Below, piece after piece: positions 9,891 to 18,486 of a stretch of 51,868 nt of DNA (positions are counted from its first letter, which is position 1; each line of letters begins with the position of its first letter). Source of the stretch: Promethearchaeota archaeon. Lineage in GTDB: Archaea > Asgardarchaeota > Lokiarchaeia > Sigyniarchaeales > SOKP01. The stretch is from NCBI GenBank assembly GCA_019058015.1, contig JAHLWH010000122.1, forward strand, positions 1-51,868, in the 5' to 3' direction. A program made the position numbers and the translations under genes. Under the pieces are notes generated by a model. The model did no database searches. It was not told where the DNA came from and saw only the letters and a program-made list of their open reading frames with translations.

Positions 9891-11057
9891 TCACCTCAAG
9901 GGTTCCTTTCCTAATATTAGAATTTCTGTCCATAGACTGCCTCCGAATCCCATAGCTAAGGATTTTTCTACATCAGGAATTTGTCGTTTATCTCCTCGCC
10001 CCATAACTTGGATTGCCGCCTCTGCAACACGAATTAATGCAGTAGCACCAATAGGATTAGTACTCAATACACCTCCTGATGGATTTACCGGTAATTCTCC
10101 ACTCATTTGAGTAATACCCTCATCCAGTAATTTTCCACCTTCTCCAAATTTACAAAAACCTAATGCTTCAGTCCAAGCAAGCTCACTCCAAGAAGTGGGT
10201 TCATATATTTCTGCAACATCTAAATCTTTTACCGGATCTGTAATTCCAACCTTTTTATAAGCTTTTCTAGATGCAATTGTTGCAGTTGGAAGATCAAACA
10301 TTGCATCATCAGTACCAAAGGTGTAATAATGGGCAGTTTCTACAGCTTGAATCCATGCTGGATTATCGGTTATATTTTTCGTTTCTCCTTCATTAGCATA
10401 AATAACTGCACATGCACCTTCGCTCTGCGGACAACAATCATGAAGCCTCAATGGATATGAAATAGTTTGGGATTTCATAACATCCTCAACTGTTAGATCA
10501 GGCATTTTTAAATGAGCAAATGGATTATTCGCAGCGTTTCGACGATTTTTTACGGTAACCCTTGCAGCTTGTCCAGGAGTAATTCCATATTTATGTTGAT
10601 ACATACTAGCCATAAGAGCGAGTGGTCCTAAAGCTCCTGCTAAAGAAGGTCTTTCCCATACTGGATCGAAAGCTGTGATAATACCAGTTGTGGCACCACC
10701 TTCTTGCAATTTTTCCCAACCTACGATTAAAACTTTATTATATATTCCTGATGCCACATTATGATACCCGCATATCGCTAACGAGGAGCCTGTAGTTCCT
10801 CCTGTGGCGACTTTAACAACTGGTTTTAGATATCCTGGTGCTGCATCTATTCCGCACCACATCTCAGAGAAATTAATTCCTTCGAAGTGATCCATATTTC
10901 CAATTATTATTGCATCAATATCATCAGGTGCGAGTTGAGCATCATCAAGAGCCATTTTTACAGCTTCATATATCATTTCGGGGATATTAACATCTCTTCT
11001 TTTGCTTCTATGCTTCGTTTGACCTATACCTACTATTGCAACATCATGTTTTGCCAT
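9891..11057 (-). CDS. ltp3: Thiolase-fold (SCP2-thiolase type) protein, Ltp3-like
   Basis: GIGQTKHRSKRRDV..DHFEG..KPVVKVATGGTTGSS..WEK..VNPSGGVLSTNPIGA. Lacks the catalytic Cys of true thiolases; resembles actinobacterial Ltp3. Confidence 0.75.
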   Translation of the reverse strand: MAKHDVAIVGIGQTKHRSKRRDVNIPEMIYEAVKMALDDAQLAPDDIDAIIIGNMDHFEGINFSEMWCGIDAAPGYLKPVVKVATGGTTGSSLAICGYHNVASGIYNKVLIVGWEKLQEGGATTGIITAFDPVWERPSLAGALGPLALMASMYQHKYGITPGQAARVTVKNRRNAANNPFAHLKMPDLTVEDVMKSQTISYPLRLHDCCPQSEGACAVIYANEGETKNITDNPAWIQAVETAHYYTFGTDDAMFDLPTATIASRKAYKKVGITDPVKDLDVAEIYEPTSWSELAWTEALGFCKFGEGGKLLDEGITQMSGELPVNPSGGVLSTNPIGATALIRVAEAAIQVMGRGDKRQIPDVEKSLAMGFGGSLWTEILILGKEPLR

Positions 11058-11060
11058 ATT

Positions 11061-12218
11061 CTATACACCTCCATCATTTCCAAATATAAGCACACAGTTT
11101 CCTTGGGAGCATATTCCATTCATTCCATTTGCTAAACCAATTTTAGCGTTGGGGATCTGTCTTTTATCTGCTTTACCCATTAATTGTAGAGCAATTTCTG
11201 CCACGCGAATTAAACCATTTGCCATGGTTGGATTACTTGATAGAACACCTCCCGAAGGATTAACGGGTATATTTCCGGTCATTTCTGTTTCACCATTTTC
11301 AATAAATTTTCCACCTTCACCTTTCCCACAGAATCCTAATGCTTCGTAACTCATTAATTCATGATATGAAAACAAATCATAAACTTCTGCTACATCAATT
11401 TCTCTGATTGGATCAGTAATTCCAGCCATTTTATAAGCTTCTTTAGCAGCTAATTCTAGTCCAATTAGATCCGTCATTGTTCTATGCCCTAAATAATAAG
11501 CATCAGTACAACTACCGTATCCCATAAGCCAAACAGGTGAGTCTGTGAATTTTTTAGCAATCTCTTCTTTTGTTAAGAGCATTGCAACTGCACCATCAGA
11601 GAGTGGTGGTAAATCAAGTTCCTTTAAAGGATATGCTATCATTGGAGAGAAAAGGATGTCCTCAATCGTAACTGCTTCTTGTAGATGTGCATATGGGTTA
11701 TTAAGTGCATTTTTTCGATTTTTTATAACAACCTTGGCTGCTTGCTCCTCTGTAATTCCATACTTATTCACATACATATTAGCCATTAAACCAGCAGTAG
11801 ATATTTGATCTAATCCTAAAGCTCTTTGATAAAAAGGATCAAAAATGGAGTTATTTATAAGATATTGATCTCCTTCAGAGCATTTGCAATGGGATACAAC
11901 CATTACTGTATCATAGTATTCTGATAAAATTCTCATAGCTCCATATATATATGCAAAGGCTCCATCTCCTGAAACTCTTGATTCTGATTTTCCAATAGAT
12001 CCCACTGCATCTTGGATTGCCATATCAGCGATCGTTCTTCCATCGTTAAAATCATTGGAACTAGTAATTACACATCCTATATCGTCATTTGTTATTCCCA
12101 AATCATTATAAAGCTTCTTAACAACCTCAAAAACAAGTTCTGAATATGTCTGATCGATTTTATCTGCTTCATATTTTGTTTGGGCTGTGGCAACAATGGC
12201 AACATTATGTTTTGGCAT
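11061..12218 (-). CDS. ltp4: Thiolase-fold protein, Ltp4-like
   Basis: LYNDLGITNDDIG..SSNDFNDGR..ESRVSGDGAFA..VNPSGG. No catalytic Cys; paired with the Ltp3-like gene. Confidence 0.7.
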   Translation of the reverse strand: MPKHNVAIVATAQTKYEADKIDQTYSELVFEVVKKLYNDLGITNDDIGCVITSSNDFNDGRTIADMAIQDAVGSIGKSESRVSGDGAFAYIYGAMRILSEYYDTVMVVSHCKCSEGDQYLINNSIFDPFYQRALGLDQISTAGLMANMYVNKYGITEEQAAKVVIKNRKNALNNPYAHLQEAVTIEDILFSPMIAYPLKELDLPPLSDGAVAMLLTKEEIAKKFTDSPVWLMGYGSCTDAYYLGHRTMTDLIGLELAAKEAYKMAGITDPIREIDVAEVYDLFSYHELMSYEALGFCGKGEGGKFIENGETEMTGNIPVNPSGGVLSSNPTMANGLIRVAEIALQLMGKADKRQIPNAKIGLANGMNGICSQGNCVLIFGNDGGV

Positions 12219-12469
12219 AATTTTTCTTTTTCTCTTTTTTATTATTATATTATAAACAGTGATTAGATAAGAGTTAAAAAATTTATAAAGTTTTCAACTA
12301 AAGCATAATGACTATTAAACGTTTTTAACATAACATCATCTTTAGAAGAAAAACAATCTAAATTTAGCCATTTATTCTATTATGGATGTTCTTAAAAAAA
12401 TGAAAAATATAAGATATGAAATATAAATTAGAAATAAGGAATTATGGATAAAATTTAGGTATATCTAAA

Positions 12470-13291
12470 ATGAGTGAATTTGATTTTCAGGATATCCTTT
12501 ATGAGAAGGAAGATAATGGTATTTGCACAATTACATTCAACAGACCTGAAAGAAGAAATGCAGTAACTTATTTAACCTTTTATGAAATTGGGCTGGTTCT
12601 AGAAGATATGGAAAAAGATAAAAATGCTAAAGTTTTAATAATTACTGGAAATCCAGAAGGGAGAGCCTTTTCATCAGGGGGTTATTTCAAGCCATCAATA
12701 TTGAATAATATAAGAGATGAAATTAAGCAAGAAATTGATTTAATGGATATCGCTCAAAAAAAAATCTGCATGAAATTTTGGAAATTTTATAAGCCTGTTA
12801 TTGTAGCCATTAATGGTTTGGCTATAGGCGGGGGAATAACAATGCCCTTATCAGGTGCAGATCTAATTTTTATGGCTGAAGATGCTTGGCTAGGATTTTA
12901 TTTTGGAAAGAGAGCCATTATACCAGAATTTGGTTCCTCTTTTATTTTGCCATTTTATGTAGGGTTTCAAAAAGCAAAAGAAATTGTATATTTTGGCGAA
13001 AAAATATATGCTCAAGAAGCTTATGAACTTGGACTTGTAAATAAAGTCTTGCCTAAGGACGAACTAATTCCATACGCTCGAGAACAAGCTTTACGGTTGA
13101 TTCCTCCTAAGGGTCCAAGTTTGTCAATAAAATTAATGAAAAAAACCATGCATGCTTATTTCCTTGAAATCATGGATAAAACTTTAGATTTGGAAAATAG
13201 AGGTCTTAGAAAAGCTTTTACTTCATACGATTTTAGAGAATCAATGAACGCACTTAAGGAAAAAAGAGACCCAGTATTTAAAGGGAAATAA
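12470..13291 (+). CDS. Enoyl-CoA hydratase/isomerase (crotonase) family protein
   Basis: ITFNRPERRNA, AFSSGG, KPVIVAINGLAIGGG, IPEFGSS, AQEAYELGLVNKV, EKRDPVFKGK. Confidence 0.93.
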   Translation: MSEFDFQDILYEKEDNGICTITFNRPERRNAVTYLTFYEIGLVLEDMEKDKNAKVLIITGNPEGRAFSSGGYFKPSILNNIRDEIKQEIDLMDIAQKKICMKFWKFYKPVIVAINGLAIGGGITMPLSGADLIFMAEDAWLGFYFGKRAIIPEFGSSFILPFYVGFQKAKEIVYFGEKIYAQEAYELGLVNKVLPKDELIPYAREQALRLIPPKGPSLSIKLMKKTMHAYFLEIMDKTLDLENRGLRKAFTSYDFRESMNALKEKRDPVFKGK

Positions 13292-13334
13292 ATTAATTCA
13301 ATCGATTTTTCAAAATTTTTATTTCTTATTATTA
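13136..13334 (+). repeat. Direct repeat copy 1: last 52 codons of the crotonase gene plus ~43 bp of 3' flank
   Basis: 13136-13291 aligns ungapped to 16472-16627 with 12 mismatches in 156 bp (manual count). Similarity continues past the stop codon. Confidence 0.95.
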
Positions 13335-13567
13335 CATTCAATTAAAATAATTAAAATTTTAGTTGAAATTATAATATCGATGTAAGAGACTTTTTTCAAT
13401 TCATACTTGAAGATTTACATGAAATAGAAAAAAAATAGAATTAAAAGTTTTTCCTCAGACATTTAAAAATTTCTATTAATTATCGCAGACTGGGGTTTTT
13501 TATTTATAAGGCAATATTAATATTTAAGATAAATGGTTAAATTTATTATATTCAAGGAGATATAGAA

Positions 13568-14632
13568 ATGAACATTAAATTAGATAAAATCAAGCATCCT
13601 TGGTACGATCCTAGAGAGGATGTTGACGACAAATATATTGAGGAATTAGCGGAAAGCATCAAAAAAGATGGCTTATTAAATCCTATAATAGTTAAAAGTA
13701 CAGAAGATGGAATGTACGAAATCATAGCAGGAGGTCATCGATTAAGAGCGGTTAAAAAATTGGAATGGACTGAAATTGAAGCTAAACTAATGGATATTGA
13801 GGAATCTGAAGCATCGATTCTCGCTATTAAAACGAATATACTACAAAAGAATTTGACAGACATTGAAGAGGGTAAGGCAATTAAAAGAATAATTGAAAAA
13901 TTCAGTTATACTCAAAGCGAGATTGCAGATAAATTAGGGAAGAGTCCAAGTTGGGTTAGTAATAGGTTAGCTTTGATTCTCAATGTTTCGCAAAGTGTTC
14001 AAAACGCCTTAAAGGAAGAGAAGATATCAACTTCTCATGCAGTACTTTTATCGAAACTCAGTAAGAGAGATCAAGATAATTTCTTAAAATATATTATATC
14101 GAAAAAATTGAATATAAACGATGCTAGAGATGCGTTGAAAAAATATGAAAATAAGACCATATACACCATAGGGTATCAAGGGAAAGATTTAGATACATTT
14201 ATTGAAATATTAAAAGATAATAAAATCGACCTACTTATCGATATAAGAGAATCTGGTAAGAGTACTAGAAAACCAGTATTCAATTCAGAAATTTTAAAGA
14301 GAGAATTTAGCAAAACTAACATAGAATACATTCATAAACAAAAATTAGGAGTAATTTACGAAAGCAGAGTCCCTTACATTAAAGGATATATTTCACACGA
14401 TTGTTTTAAAGGTTGGTATGAATGGCATTTAGACGATATCGACTTTAATATCGAAGAATTTGTGAATTTTCTCAAAAATAATGGAACATGCTGTTTAATG
14501 TGTATGGAAGAATTCTCTAAACCAAAAAAACAACAAAAATACTATTGCCATAGAGATTTTTTGGTAGAAAAGATTTTAAATTTTAAGTCAGAAGATCCAT
14601 TATATTCCTTTGACGAGAGAATAGACTTGTAG
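13568..14632 (+). CDS. ParB/Spo0J (CTPase domain plus HTH) fused to a C-terminal DUF488 domain
   Basis: ParB: ELAESIKKDGLLNPIIV..YEIIAGGHRLRA and HTH TQSEIADKLGKSPSWVSNRL. DUF488: IYTIGYQG..LIDIR..YIHKQKLG..CLMCME..CHR. Confidence 0.85.
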   Translation: MNIKLDKIKHPWYDPREDVDDKYIEELAESIKKDGLLNPIIVKSTEDGMYEIIAGGHRLRAVKKLEWTEIEAKLMDIEESEASILAIKTNILQKNLTDIEEGKAIKRIIEKFSYTQSEIADKLGKSPSWVSNRLALILNVSQSVQNALKEEKISTSHAVLLSKLSKRDQDNFLKYIISKKLNINDARDALKKYENKTIYTIGYQGKDLDTFIEILKDNKIDLLIDIRESGKSTRKPVFNSEILKREFSKTNIEYIHKQKLGVIYESRVPYIKGYISHDCFKGWYEWHLDDIDFNIEEFVNFLKNNGTCCLMCMEEFSKPKKQQKYYCHRDFLVEKILNFKSEDPLYSFDERIDL

Positions 14633-14722
14633 GATGCCAAAATAATTATTAAATTTATACACAGTCAGTTTTTATAAACATTAATTACTTCTTATTATAA
14701 AGATTGTATTTAGGGGATTTTA

Positions 14723-15547
14723 ATGAGTTGGGAAAAAAGAGAAATTCTTTTAATAGCTAAAACTTATCCAGAAAGAAGTCAAAAATACGGAAATACAGTT
14801 TGTACTGCGGGGATAATGGAAGATACAAATGAATGGGTTCGAGTTTATCCCATTAATTTAAATGTTTATCTTCGTAAAAAATTAAAGAAATTTGTTCGAT
14901 TTAAAGCAGAGATAAGAAAAAACAAAAGTGAAATGATAAAAAGAAAAGAATCATATAAAATTCGAGAGAAATCAATAAAAATAACCGACGATAGTCTAGT
15001 AGATCCGAAAGTAAAAGGTGTCTGGGAAGAAAGAACTAAAATATTAGAAAAAAGTCTTTCCGAATCTATGGAATTTTTAAAAAATCAATTTGAAATTAAA
15101 AGAATGTCATTAGGGATAATCAAGCCACATCAAAAATCAATAAAATTTTTAATAGAAAAACCCGTTGATAATGTAGAAATCGATGTTATTAAAGAAGTCC
15201 AATTAAATCTTTTTGGAGAACAAGTAAGAAAAGTAGATAAAATAGAACATGCATTTTCTTACCGATATAAATGCAATATAGAAAATTGTAAAGGTCACAA
15301 AATGATATGTATCGACTGGGAATTATTAGAATCATTTAGAAAGTGGAGAAAAACATACAAAACTCCACAAAAATTGGAATTTGCATTAATTAATAGATAT
15401 AACGACTGGATGATTAAAGAACGAGATCTATATCTTGTTGTTGGCACAATCTGGCGATATAAAACTTGGATTATAATTGGCCTATTTTATCCTCCAAAAA
15501 AAGGACAAAAAACGCAGAAAAAACTTAGTTCATTTTTTAAAAAATAG
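14723..15547 (+). CDS. Conserved hypothetical protein of the DUF488-associated 'KTYP..S.KY..TVCTAG..W.R.YP' type (dual-OB-like)
   Basis: N-terminus LLIAKTYPERSQKYGNTVCTAG..EWVRVYPI; C-terminus YRYKC..C..H..IDWE..DLYLVVGT..WIIIGLFYPP. Confidence 0.65.
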   Translation: MSWEKREILLIAKTYPERSQKYGNTVCTAGIMEDTNEWVRVYPINLNVYLRKKLKKFVRFKAEIRKNKSEMIKRKESYKIREKSIKITDDSLVDPKVKGVWEERTKILEKSLSESMEFLKNQFEIKRMSLGIIKPHQKSIKFLIEKPVDNVEIDVIKEVQLNLFGEQVRKVDKIEHAFSYRYKCNIENCKGHKMICIDWELLESFRKWRKTYKTPQKLEFALINRYNDWMIKERDLYLVVGTIWRYKTWIIIGLFYPPKKGQKTQKKLSSFFKK

Positions 15548-15589
15548 AAATGTGAGATGATAAAATAATAATGGGGAAGAATTTATATT

Positions 15590-16390
15590 ATGACCAACCG
15601 ATGTCTTAACTTAAATTATCGAAATCTAAGAAATGGGCAGAGATTATATTATTCTTTTAACCACGATGAAGCTTTACTCTCTTGGTATTATGAGAAAAAT
15701 AAATTAAATAAAGGTAATTTTTTCCTTATAACAATAGATGCCCACATAGATTGGACTGATCTGGCTAAAGAAGAATTAGTAGAACTAAAAAAATTTAAAG
15801 AACGACAAAAAAATCTTGATAATAATAATGAGGATTTAAGTGAATCAGATGACCCACACCTACAAAACTTATCTGAATTAAGGAAAATTATTGAAAATTC
15901 ATTTAGAGGGGATAATGTCTCATTTATTGTGGCTTCAATGGAATTAGGATTAATAGATGATGTATTAATTATATCTCCTAATATAAATGATCTTGAAATC
16001 CCAGAAACTTATGAAGATATGCAAGGAATTCAGCACAAAATTTATCATATACATTCTATTAGAAGTTTATGGTATCCATATGGGAGAGCAGTATTGAATG
16101 ATGATTTCAACAAAAGATGTCTGGAGATTCGGAATCATCTATATTCGAATCCATATATTGTAGACTTTGATTTAGATTATTTTACTTATTCTCGTGATAA
16201 TAAGGAATTTGTTATTAATGAAAAACACTTTAAAATAATTTTTAACGATTCAAATTTTTATAATTTATTATCTAAGGCAAGTGTTATCACAATTGCATTA
16301 GAGCCAGGTTGTTGTGGTGGTGTTCAAAATAGTGCGATTATTTTTCACAAAATAACCAGTTCTATTTCAAATCGATTAGGAAGTTTGTAA
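15590..16390 (+). CDS. UPF0489 family protein (arginase/deacetylase-like metallohydrolase fold)
   Basis: NHDEALLSW, TIDAHIDW, VDFDLDYF, ITIALEPGCCGG. Confidence 0.75.
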   Translation: MTNRCLNLNYRNLRNGQRLYYSFNHDEALLSWYYEKNKLNKGNFFLITIDAHIDWTDLAKEELVELKKFKERQKNLDNNNEDLSESDDPHLQNLSELRKIIENSFRGDNVSFIVASMELGLIDDVLIISPNINDLEIPETYEDMQGIQHKIYHIHSIRSLWYPYGRAVLNDDFNKRCLEIRNHLYSNPYIVDFDLDYFTYSRDNKEFVINEKHFKIIFNDSNFYNLLSKASVITIALEPGCCGGVQNSAIIFHKITSSISNRLGSL

Positions 16391-16471
16391 TTTTTTTTTG
16401 AAATTTTTTTTAAAAAATATTACTCACCCTTCTTAGATAAAGACCAGAATATTGTAAATTTTAATAAATCA

Positions 16472-16670
16472 ATGAAAAAAAACATGCATTCTTATATCCT
16501 TGAGATCCTAGAAAAAACTTTAGATTGGGAAAATAGAGGTCTTAGAAAAGCTTTTACTTCATATGATTTTAGAGAATCGATGAATGCACTTAAGGAAAAA
16601 AGAGACCCTGTATTTAAAGGGAAATAAATTAATTTAATTGAATTTCTAAAATCTTAATTTCTAATTATCA
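16472..16670 (+). pseudogene. Direct repeat copy 2: orphan crotonase 3' fragment (51 aa plus stop at 16627) and flank
   Basis: MKKNMHSYILEILEKTLDWENRGLRKAFTSYDFRESMNALKEKRDPVFKGK*, versus MKKTMHAYFLEIMDKTLDLENRG... in the intact gene. Confidence 0.92.
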
Positions 16671-16803
16671 AAATCATTTAATATAAATGAAATAATCCTC
16701 TAATTTTAAAAAAAAAATTCACCTATTTGATATTTTAAAAAAAAATATTAAAACGAGAATAAATTAATTATGACAAAAAATATATTACTGGTAATAAAAA
16801 AAA

Positions 16804-17214
16804 ATGACAAAGATTAAAATTTTATCGGAAGAATGGGTTGAAGCTTTTGGTAAAGCAATCAATGCGAATCCAAATTATAAGCCATCAGCGCTTACTTGGG
16901 AAGGGGATATGCTTCTCTTAATTGAACCTAGTGGGAAATTAGATCATGAAGTAAGGATCTTTATTGGCCTTTACCACGGTGAATGTACAGGAACTAGACT
17001 ATTAAAAGAAGGAGAAGAGGTTGACACTCCATATATTCTATCTGGTCCTTATGATAATTTTGTGAGAGTTATGAATAAAGAATTTGACCCTATTCAAGGA
17101 GTTATGTCTGGTAAGTTAAAACTGAGCGGTGATATGGCAAAATTGATGAGACATGTTCAAGCAGCTAAAGAAATTGTGAATAGTCTTCTAACGTTCGAAA
17201 CAGAATTTTTATAA
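16804..17214 (+). CDS. SCP2 sterol/lipid-binding domain protein
   Basis: SEEWVEAF..IN.NPNY..WEGD..GLYHGEC..DPIQGVMSGKLKLSGDMAKLMR. Confidence 0.88.
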   Translation: MTKIKILSEEWVEAFGKAINANPNYKPSALTWEGDMLLLIEPSGKLDHEVRIFIGLYHGECTGTRLLKEGEEVDTPYILSGPYDNFVRVMNKEFDPIQGVMSGKLKLSGDMAKLMRHVQAAKEIVNSLLTFETEFL

Positions 17215-17286
17215 AAAGCAAGAGAATTTTCATTTAGTTTTTTTTTTAATTTAATAGAACAATAAAAAACATCATAGGAAAAAAAA

Positions 17287-18486
17287 ATGTGGTACTTTTA
17301 TAGTCCTAATATTATATATGGTGAGGATGCACTAAATTTCTTAGAAAATATTCCGGGAGATAAATGTTTTATTGTCACTGATAAAGTAATGGAGGAGTTG
17401 GGTTATTTAAAAATTTTAACAGATAAACTGGAAAAATACGGAAAACAGTATAATGTATATAATGAAATACTCCCTAATCCTCGAGAAACTCATGTAGCAG
17501 AAGCAAGAGAAATGTGCAATTCTTACACTCCTGATTTAATTCTTGCTTTAGGAGGAGGTTCGGTTATGGATGCTGCAAAAATGGTTTGGTGTTTCTATGA
17601 ATTTCCAGAGCTTTCACTTGATGATATCCATCCATTTAGACCCGACCTTCATAATATGGGCAAAAAAGCAAAATTAGTAGCCATACCAACTACTTCAGGA
17701 ACTGGAGCAGAAACAACATACGCTGCAATTATATCAAAATTTGAAAATGATATCTGGAAAAAATTCCTATATGCTCATAAAGGAATAGTTCCTACATATG
17801 CTATAGTAGATCCAATATTCCCCGTAGGAATGCCTTCTAATTTAACTGCTGATACAGGTTTTGATGCATTAGCCCATGCGATTGAAGGAATGGGCTCTGA
17901 GTGGAGAAATGAGTTCAGTGATGCATTGGGGGTTAAAGCTATTGAATTAGTTTTTAAATATCTGCCAATTGCCATTAAAGAAGGTAAGAATATGGAAGCT
18001 AGAGATTACATGCATCAAGCAGCAACTATGGCTGGATTAGCTTTTGGTAATGGAAATGTTCATATAGGACATGGAATGGGTCATAGTTTGGGAGCAATCT
18101 TTCATATTCCTCATGGAAGGGCAGTTGGTGTTGTGCTTAGTTATGTTACACAATTCTGTTTAAATAATCCTGATGAAAAAGATAAATCTATAGAAATTTA
18201 TGCAAAATTAGCGAAACAATTAGGATGGGCAAACTGGGATGAAGATAATAAAAAGGCAGCCTTTACTGTAATCGAGAAAATCAAAGAGCTCCAAAAAGAG
18301 GTCGGAATTCCAAATAAGATTCAAGATTTAGGAATTTCTCGCGAAGATTTTGATAAGAATTTAGATATGCTAATAACTTTATGTTATGAAGATGCAACTA
18401 TTGGAATGGTCCCAAGAAGCGTAAATCCAGAGATATTTAAAAATTTATTTACATATGCTTATGACGGGAAAAATATCGATTTTTAA
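17287..18486 (+). CDS. Iron-containing alcohol dehydrogenase
   Basis: ALGGGSVMDAAK, IPTTSGTGAE, DALAHAIE, HGMGHSLG..HIPHG. Confidence 0.93.
   Translation: MWYFYSPNIIYGEDALNFLENIPGDKCFIVTDKVMEELGYLKILTDKLEKYGKQYNVYNEILPNPRETHVAEAREMCNSYTPDLILALGGGSVMDAAKMVWCFYEFPELSLDDIHPFRPDLHNMGKKAKLVAIPTTSGTGAETTYAAIISKFENDIWKKFLYAHKGIVPTYAIVDPIFPVGMPSNLTADTGFDALAHAIEGMGSEWRNEFSDALGVKAIELVFKYLPIAIKEGKNMEARDYMHQAATMAGLAFGNGNVHIGHGMGHSLGAIFHIPHGRAVGVVLSYVTQFCLNNPDEKDKSIEIYAKLAKQLGWANWDEDNKKAAFTVIEKIKELQKEVGIPNKIQDLGISREDFDKNLDMLITLCYEDATIGMVPRSVNPEIFKNLFTYAYDGKNIDF

Follow-up and report, generated by a model that had tools for sequence, protein, structure and literature searches.

The stretch of DNA analysed here (the window) is a 51,868-nt contig of a Promethearchaeota archaeon (JAHLWH010000122.1). 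On its forward strand, positions 13568..14632 encode a 354-residue protein in which a ParB nucleotide-switch domain and a ParB-type helix-turn-helix (HTH) are fused to a DUF488 domain (component A). The next gene on the same strand, 90 nt further 3' (14723..15547), encodes a 274-residue protein predicted to bind DNA through tandem OB folds (component B). Both genes lie in a 3,108-bp island (13358..16465) that two congeneric genomes lack at the corresponding site. The first-pass annotation, made from the letters alone, had described the fusion correctly; the partner gene and the 3.1-kb insertion had escaped it.

The fusion gene starts with ATG, and its open frame (363 amino acids) holds only nine extra codons 5' of this start. 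Three Pfam domains follow one another along the protein: a ParB_N domain of the cytidine triphosphatase (CTPase) fold (PF02195, residues 2–91, 13571..13840, forward strand; E 2.2e-19, 69.7 bits against a cut-off of 26.3), a ParB-type HTH (PF17762, residues 95–194, 13850..14149, forward strand; E 1.2e-21, 77.2 bits against 22.6), and DUF488 (PF04343, residues 208–334, 14189..14569, forward strand; E 4.3e-13, 50.4 bits against 22.2). Residues 12–192 align with the solved structures of Noc and ParB (7ng0_A, E 3.6e-32; 4umk_A, E 6.5e-30), the HTH segment falling on the HTH region of Noc and the fusion's AGGHRLRA (residues 54–61) on Noc AGERRWRA. The annotation of this half as a Spo0J-type ParB with an intact HTH is well founded. 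The NCBIfam model TIGR00180 (parB_part) is exceeded (137.7 bits, cut-off 58.45), the Noc model is reached only below its cut-off (169 bits against 315), and Pfam adds a weak KorB-domain match (E 2.5e-5).

Canonical ParB/Spo0J and Noc proteins are CTP-dependent DNA sliding clamps. The window protein resembles them in its ParB_N fold with a GxxR Box II, in its ParB HTH, and in scoring above the TIGR00180 cut-off. It differs from them in having GGHR (residues 55–58) rather than GERR in Box II, KTN where Noc has ENL in Box III, and neither a ParA-binding peptide, nor the C-terminal dimerisation domain, nor a parA gene. Pfam did not find in the fusion PF23552, the C-terminal domain of ParB, which a large share of the canonical ParB proteins among the matches listed possess. 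Its place is taken by a complete DUF488 domain (profile positions 2–119 of 121), and the motifs attributed to this region, TIGY (200–203), DIR (225–227), CME (312–314) and CHR (327–329), are each present in the translation.

No ParA-type gene was found on the contig. Six-frame translation of the window shows no deviant Walker A motif, KGGxGK[ST], and the seven matches to PF13614 (AAA_31) in the 3.84-Mb, 94%-complete genome all lie elsewhere than on the contig concerned (C117). The LG(R/K)GL peptide was likewise not found in the 354-residue translation; Kaljevic, Sukhoverkov, Johnson, Hocher & Le (bioRxiv 10.1101/2025.10.10.680097; PMC12704722) give this sequence as the N-terminal ParA-binding motif, and also report that archaeal ParB homologues with an HTH are rarely near ParA. 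With no ParA neighbour, no such peptide and no PF23552 domain, the fusion gene does not have a role in chromosome or plasmid partition, as the earlier annotation had also argued.

The architecture recurs in several archaeal lineages. A word-indexed search of 5.8 billion proteins returned 865 matches at E ≤0.001; among the 120 best clusters at 90% identity, 42 carry all three domains over their full length (40–99% identity, ~354 residues) and two more carry the HTH and DUF488 only. The others are ordinary ParBs covering about half of the query, where identity of the ParB half to bacterial ParB and Noc does not exceed 40%. Named members come from metagenome-assembled genomes (MAGs) of Promethearchaeota, Lokiarchaeota, Helarchaeota, Heimdallarchaeota and Thermoplasmatota, and several public records of these relatives bear the annotation 'partition protein'. 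Among the best 150 of 1.84 billion representatives at 50% identity, searched exhaustively with the profile, there were 13 end-to-end matches in one stretch and one more in two stretches, as well as ~15 larger or shorter proteins that match the HTH-DUF488 part alone. The island itself is covered at 95–100% likeness by contigs from runs of three studies; no RNA sample is listed as carrying the stretch in the expression look-up.

In an alignment of 34 family members, most invariant columns fall in the DUF488 half. Its invariant residues are D225, R227, S229, S232, C312, E314, C327, H328 and R329. Box II keeps G55, R58 and A61, while positions 56 and 57, canonically E and R, vary; Box III keeps N90 and has not kept the glutamate. 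Invariance of these putative catalytic residues argues for an active enzyme.

The earlier annotation had taken the fusion for an undescribed system. This part of it has to be withdrawn, as an archaeal 'DUF488-HTH' ParB-CTPase fusion is among the five CTP binders that Kaljevic et al. 2025 report from DRaCALA, a ligand assay based on differential radial capillary action. The window protein has the same three-part architecture and retains, as G55..R58, the GxxR core that these authors assign to Box II. The available portion of their text gives neither a function, a partner gene nor a genomic context for the fusion, and theirs is the only paper on DUF488, among the matches listed, that bears on it. 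CTP binding has been demonstrated for this archaeal relative only and would extend to the window protein by analogy; the same source states that neither sequence nor AlphaFold3 predicts nucleotide specificity.

A second orphan protein with ParB_N and HTH_ParB domains is encoded in the same genome (419 residues, G000:C67:5095-6351, equivalent to L026:1447-2703). Its C-terminal region of ~195 residues has no Pfam match.

The partner protein has no Pfam family match. It was characterized with PADLOC, PHROG and a structural model, and matches phrog_25907 with an E-value of 2.4e-41; 327 relatives at E ≤0.001 are distributed over archaea and bacteria. The AlphaFold model (predicted local distance difference test, pLDDT, 91.3) is a tandem OB fold. 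Foldseek relates it to RPA (E 5.3e-6) and HIN-200 (E 1.2e-4), with low TM scores. VIA comparison finds OB folds for both halves: residues 1–111 resemble telomere-end-binding protein, RecO, PriB and RPA (Z up to 7.2), and residues ~106–271 resemble Teb1 OB-C and RPA70 (Z 6.0–6.1), values that lie in the middling range of this tool. The Pfam family DuOB (PF22557) is reached by two of 43 aligned relatives (best E 6.5e-5), not by the window partner itself, and a DuOB cluster stands at rank 26 in the protein-language-model Atlas (score 0.86, to be taken as a lead only). The literature searched for DuOB held nothing relevant.

Both proteins match components of a catalogued system. The partner covers the PADLOC model PDC-M19B (PDLC04508) almost from end to end (E 4.7e-47, profile positions 3–266 of 269), and fusion residues 182–340 match PDC-M19A (E 1e-20) over profile positions 135–285 of 294 only. 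The likeness to PDC-M19 (models PDLC04504-04508; Payne, Hughes, Fineran & Jackson) thus comprises a full-length M19B, the DUF488 part of M19A, and adjacent genes on the same strand. The difference lies at the N-terminus, where canonical M19A has a region of ~135 residues and the window fusion has ParB_N and the HTH instead. As described by Payne et al. (bioRxiv 10.1101/2024.01.29.577857), PDC systems are 145 untested phage defence candidates that were added to PADLOC, and occur as cassettes embedded in BREX, DISARM or type I restriction-modification loci. Judged by these sequence matches, the gene pair is an archaeal version of a catalogued candidate antiviral gene pair. A pair without ParB is encoded by convergent genes in Promethearchaeum syntrophicum MK-D1 (L048, NZ_CP042905.2, ~1,585,150-1,586,835); its match to PDC-M19A and to PDC-M19B is full-length (M19A: E 2.9e-75, profile positions 2–284 of 294).

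To quantify the linkage of the two genes, the best 80 of 166 confirmed genome loci encoding a partner relative were surveyed with our own hidden Markov models (HMMs), a neighbour being counted within 600 bp. A DUF488 gene lies within this distance at 73 of the 80 loci, in 11 cases as a ParB-DUF488 fusion (ten in Asgard archaea and one in a Desulfurococcales MAG) and in 62 as a DUF488 protein without ParB. Four further loci have a ParB-domain gene without DUF488 beside the partner, and at the remaining three the contig breaks off at the partner gene, so that no neighbour is seen. A DUF488 gene is also adjacent at each of the 12 loci on viral contigs, in no case with ParB. Gene order varies among lineages: the fusion gene stands upstream of the partner in the window and at one other locus, and downstream at nine. 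Of the 92 pairs, ten have convergent genes, and many have genes overlapping by 4 nt. Within the phylum, 19 of 400 genomes, belonging to 13 of 85 genera, contain the partner gene, as do six of the 90 genomes of high quality.

The N-terminal region of the DUF488 protein is the variable part of this pairing. One type of head is the ParB_N-HTH unit of the window fusion. A second, of ~135 residues, accounts in MK-D1 for the remainder of the M19A profile and also matches a model of type I specificity subunits (E 5.4e-9). A third, at locus L056, is MazE/AbrB-like; other DUF488 neighbours (172–175 residues) have no head at all. Alignment of the ParB-less MK-D1 protein with the fusion family by hhalign covers the DUF488 part only, so the ~135-residue head is not a remnant of ParB, and a degraded ParB-HTH at this position can be discarded. 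Since the DUF488-OB pair occurs without ParB at 62 of the 80 loci, ParB is an optional head rather than the core function. The invariant core is the DUF488-OB pair, and the identifiable heads of the DUF488 proteins are DNA-binding. Interchangeable heads that target DNA point to DNA as the substrate.

The converse exchange was also observed. Three of the ParB genes without DUF488, all three of those scanned with Pfam, encode ParB_N, with or without the HTH, followed by an ASCH domain, next to a relative of PDC-M19B (L084:4970-5989, L094:2160-3161, L102:4700-5752). The fourth (L107:4721-5752) was recognized with our own HMMs and lies outside the Pfam scan. These loci belong to MAGs of Chloroflexota and Acidobacteriia. 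The same ParB-HTH chassis, beside the same partner, thus bears a different C-terminal domain.

Beyond the pair itself, the surroundings are heterogeneous. No recurrent gene was found by Pfam among 44 flanking open reading frames (ORFs) of seven ParB-DUF488 loci, and among 128 immediate neighbours of 32 loci, examined with PADLOC and Pfam, the commonest family is a DDE transposase (5 of 128). In the search for a conserved third gene or a defence-island context, these transposases were all that recurred. A ParA-type gene lies within 6 kb of only one of the 80 loci (L039:9172-10086, reverse strand; AAA_31, E 5.1e-43); this ParA/MinD-type gene is separated from the ParB-DUF488 gene by 1.3 kb and two genes and is encoded on the other strand. 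A gene with a deviant Walker A motif is confined to this one locus of the 80.

Two arrangements differ from the simple pair. At an Asgard locus (L041:1788-4331), three tandem paralogues of the OB partner precede a single ParB-DUF488 gene, and at a locus of Altiarchaeota (L111:5078-8676) two complete DUF488-partner pairs stand in tandem.

The DUF488 domain was examined through a model of residues 192–354 (pLDDT 95). Foldseek found no match at E ≤0.001 in PDB or BFVD. The top VIA match is CobF (Z 8.2, root mean square deviation 3.2, 117 residues aligned), and the remainder of the list consists mostly of phosphatases of the protein tyrosine phosphatase (PTP) fold (laforin and SsoPTP, Z 7.2; KAP, 6.9) and N-domains of tetrapyrrole methylases. 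RapZ-C (Z 5.1) is also listed, as are polynucleotide/RNA 5'-phosphatases of the PTP fold (BVP 1yn9_A, Z 5.9; PIR1, 5.5; Mce1, 5.2). The canonical CX5R spacing is absent; the domain has C312-x14-C327-H-R instead. The modelled fold is thus weakly phosphatase-like, and as the matches are middling (Z ≤8.2) and Foldseek gives none, the term denotes resemblance, not membership.

The nearest clusters in the Atlas are DUF488 and DUF488-N3a (score 0.87, again only a lead). The ParB-less DUF488 neighbours match the Pfam family 'DUF488-N3a, active DUF488-N3 subclade', and the window protein falls below that model. In 2023 Burroughs and Aravind are said to have assigned DUF488 to the rhodanese-phosphatase superfamily, together with RapZ-C and DUF4326, and reportedly predicted that the clade holds novel DNA-end-processing enzymes of virus-host conflict systems, which we treat as a lead and not as a result. 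The fold matches above, to PTP-fold enzymes, tetrapyrrole-methylase N-domains and RapZ-C, resemble this description, as do the DUF488-N3a matches of the ParB-less neighbours and the DuOB matches of two of the 43 partner relatives; the proteins of the window differ in reaching neither the DUF488-N3a nor the DuOB model. PMC9503650 contains a related statement on DUF4326. A complex prediction for the DUF488 domain and the partner scored 0.00 against a mark of 0.32, a result that counts neither for nor against binding.

The island that carries the pair is bounded by a direct repeat of 228 nt. In the left copy (13130..13357, forward strand), the 3' terminus of the enoyl-CoA hydratase gene (12470-13291), which is intact, is followed by 66 nt of downstream DNA. 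The right copy (16466..16693, forward strand) holds a remnant ORF of 51 residues (16472-16627) that duplicates the C-terminus of the hydratase (ECH_1 profile positions 202–251). The two copies are 88% identical to each other. In two congeners (G148:C8 and G146:C46) the site is empty: the flanks, 85–94% identical to those of the window, abut and share a single copy of the repeat. The module is mobile, as this polymorphism at one site within a genus makes plain.

Between these repeats the island has three ORFs only, and no integrase, transposase or tRNA was found inside it. The 28 differences between the repeat copies are unevenly distributed with respect to the empty sites. Within positions 1–62, it is the left copy that has the letter of the empty site at six of eight; within positions 198–224, all eight agree with the empty site of G148 in the right copy; and the middle of the repeat is mixed. 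Identity over the whole repeat scarcely separates the two copies (91.2 versus 92.1% to G148, 89.6 versus 87.8% to G146). The position-wise pattern alone is suggestive, and it suggests that the native copy is represented by its 5' part on the left and its last 30 nt on the right. This pattern would fit recombination of the chromosomal site with a diverged copy borne by the element.

The third gene of the island (15590..16390, forward strand; 266 residues) is accessory and lies outside the conserved module. It has no PADLOC, NCBIfam or PHROG match, its only similarity being to UPF0489 below threshold (E 0.036), and tblastn did not find it at the other loci searched. In another congener, G145, the two core genes are present at 81% DNA identity and the third is missing; there, the DNA following the partner gene is joined directly to the final ~60 nt of the island. 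Stretches DAHID and DFDLD, noticed by eye in the third protein, presumably recall metal sites of the arginase/deacetylase fold. The same gene shows a length polymorphism in sequencing runs X1, X3 and X5, where at 15797-15874 a segment of 76 nt is replaced by seven letters, a change of -69 nt that keeps the frame.

Word depth in run X5 differs between the island and its surroundings. Contigs of the flanks (13018-13204 and 16514-17500) have depths of 143–165, and the 3,276-nt contig of the island (13264-16540) has a depth of 10.5. Most related cells in this sample may therefore be without the island, although the depth of a contig does not measure the proportion of cells, and none of the contigs listed spans the empty site.

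The island interrupts a cluster of lipid/acyl-CoA metabolism (9891-13291 and 16804-18486). Its members are two thiolase-like genes, the enoyl-CoA hydratase, an SCP2-domain protein and an iron-type alcohol dehydrogenase of 399 residues; the thiolase-like genes and the dehydrogenase were recognized by eye.

We lean towards the view that these genes form a mobile two-component module of genetic conflict that targets DNA, in which the ParB/HTH part would deliver a cysteine-phosphatase-like enzyme to DNA and the OB protein would hold the substrate. Several lines lead to it: the optional ParB head and the invariant DUF488-OB core, the DNA-binding character of the heads, the small, mobile and patchy nature of the module, its occurrence on viral contigs, and its listing among defence candidates. 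The most likely role in such a conflict would be defence against viruses or other invading DNA. A DNA-loading module that bears an enzyme, as the first-pass annotation had put it, is also the most economical reading of the architecture.

According to this proposal, component A would be a Rossmann-like DUF488 enzyme with invariant Cys, His, Arg and Asp, most similar in shape to cysteine phosphatases, whose usual N-terminal DNA-recognition region was presumably replaced, in the Asgard lineage, by a ParB nucleotide-switch domain of bacterial type and a ParB HTH. Component B, the DuOB-like tandem OB-fold protein, would bind single-stranded DNA or DNA ends. The HTH would find the DNA; binding of CTP by ParB_N would then lead to self-engagement of the N-terminal domains and to a dimer that is associated with DNA and possibly slides on it. 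This switch of the dimer would put the active site of DUF488 on the DNA, where the enzyme and its OB partner could act on a group bearing phosphate, located at a DNA end or on a sugar; Cys312 or Cys327 would carry out the dephosphorylation or phosphotransfer.

A more specific form of this mechanism, an 'enzyme on a clamp', is speculative, and we think it unlikely. CTP would close the gate formed by ParB_N, and the dimer, with DUF488 holding it at the opposite end, would entrap DNA and slide on it. The cysteine-phosphatase-like site would thereby search along foreign DNA for an end or flap that the double-OB partner holds, and on meeting it would remove or transfer a terminal phosphate or sugar-phosphate, thus blocking replication, circularisation or packaging.

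Several observations weigh against the conflict reading or parts of it. No member of PDC-M19 has been tested, the PDC systems being put forward by Payne et al. as untested candidates, and the name 'PDC-M19' was found in no paper of the literature searched. Matches to defence models among the 128 neighbours are scattered singletons, which, having no control set, indicate neither enrichment nor depletion, and the neighbourhood in the window (thiolase-like genes, enoyl-CoA hydratase, SCP2) is of a housekeeping kind and not a defence island. The lack of an integrase in the island also counts against this reading. As to the enzyme, the fold matches of DUF488 do not rise above the middling range. 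As to the clamp, the protein is without the canonical C-terminal dimerisation domain, which leaves ring closure and sliding in doubt, and from the varied Box II positions 56–57 and the lost glutamate of Box III we would assume weak or no hydrolysis of CTP. Nor was a parS-like palindrome found: the island contains no perfect palindrome of 14–16 nt (at least two G/C per half), and none is common to 12 ParB-DUF488 islands, among which no shared half-sites were found either. The bacterial parS consensus has three sites with two mismatches genome-wide, which is near a rough estimate of chance and uninformative.

The housekeeping context would suit a cellular role. A DNA-end phosphatase or a related enzyme might be brought by the ParB-HTH unit and an SSB/RPA-like OB protein to damaged DNA of the host, an extension of the 'damaged DNA' idea of the earlier annotation. 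The structural matches lend this some appeal, those of the partner being OB folds of RPA, SSB, PriB and RecO type and those of DUF488 including the 5'-phosphatases BVP, PIR1 and Mce1. Against this stand the patchy distribution of the pair in the phylum, its presence or absence at one and the same site within a genus, its occurrence on viral contigs and among PADLOC defence candidates, and the transposases among its neighbours. Patchiness, site polymorphism, viral contigs and transposase neighbours are unlike a core repair pathway, and we regard a repair function as improbable.

The mobility of the pair is shared by a different explanation, in which it serves the maintenance or regulation of a mobile element. 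ParB-HTH would act as a CTP-dependent regulator or silencer like KorB, VirB or BisD, or would, as an orphan, bind the centromere of a plasmid or virus that has integrated, and DUF488 would be a dimerisation or ligand-sensing domain. KorB, VirB and BisD are indeed named as ParB-like regulators in the introduction of Kaljevic et al., and the fusion has the weak KorB-domain match mentioned above. The genes lie within an inserted island, relatives of the pair are found on the 12 viral contigs, DUF488-bearing genes have been noted on Methanoperedens plasmids, and locus L054 has another ParB_N gene ~3.5 kb upstream. Yet the island is without genes for replication, integration or structural proteins, ParA-type genes are as rare near the pair as stated above, the prevailing form of the pair dispenses with ParB, and the invariant putative catalytic residues of DUF488 speak for an active enzyme. 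Such a role seems to us less probable still than repair.

An addiction cassette of the toxin-antitoxin kind, in which damage to host DNA, or a block of it, by one protein is counteracted by the other, thereby stabilising the DNA segment that carries them, would likewise account for a tight two-gene module that is mobile and patchy, with frequent overlaps of 4 nt and, in one variant (L056), a MazE/AbrB-like N-terminal domain. Pfam, NCBIfam and PADLOC assign neither protein to a known family of toxins or antitoxins, however, the convergent pairs (10 of 92) are not co-transcribed, and both proteins are large and have conserved folds related to nucleic acids; we consider this explanation very doubtful. 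That the fusion is an artefact of chimeric assembly or of a frameshift joining two genes is practically negligible and was rejected, given the size of the family in both searches (42 of 120 clusters, 13 of 150 representatives) and the contigs from runs of three studies, with nothing found in its favour.

The fusion architecture, and CTP binding by a relative, were already known from Kaljevic et al., and the gene pair from PADLOC. The insertion polymorphism, the quantified linkage and the ParB-ASCH parallel are new, as far as the literature searched shows.

ParB-type CTP switches serve in partition proteins, nucleoid-occlusion factors and transcription regulators, and we know of no established case in which such a switch delivers an enzyme to DNA. 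The fusion family joins a type of CTP binder, by analogy with the relative for which binding was demonstrated, to a conserved uncharacterised enzyme that has an obligate, predicted DNA-binding partner. More generally, DUF488 proteins carry interchangeable DNA-targeting heads, and the annotation of the fusion gene as a partition protein, as in several public records, should be avoided. Because this small, self-contained pair has relatives in bacteria and in the cultured archaeon MK-D1, both the chemistry of DUF488 and the PDC-M19 candidate are directly testable, and the MK-D1 pair offers a possible experimental handle in a cultured Asgard archaeon. If true, the exchange of DUF488 and ASCH on a ParB-HTH chassis beside the same partner would represent a modular platform, and with an 'enzyme on a clamp' prokaryotic immunity would gain a new effector logic, and the CTP switch a new use.

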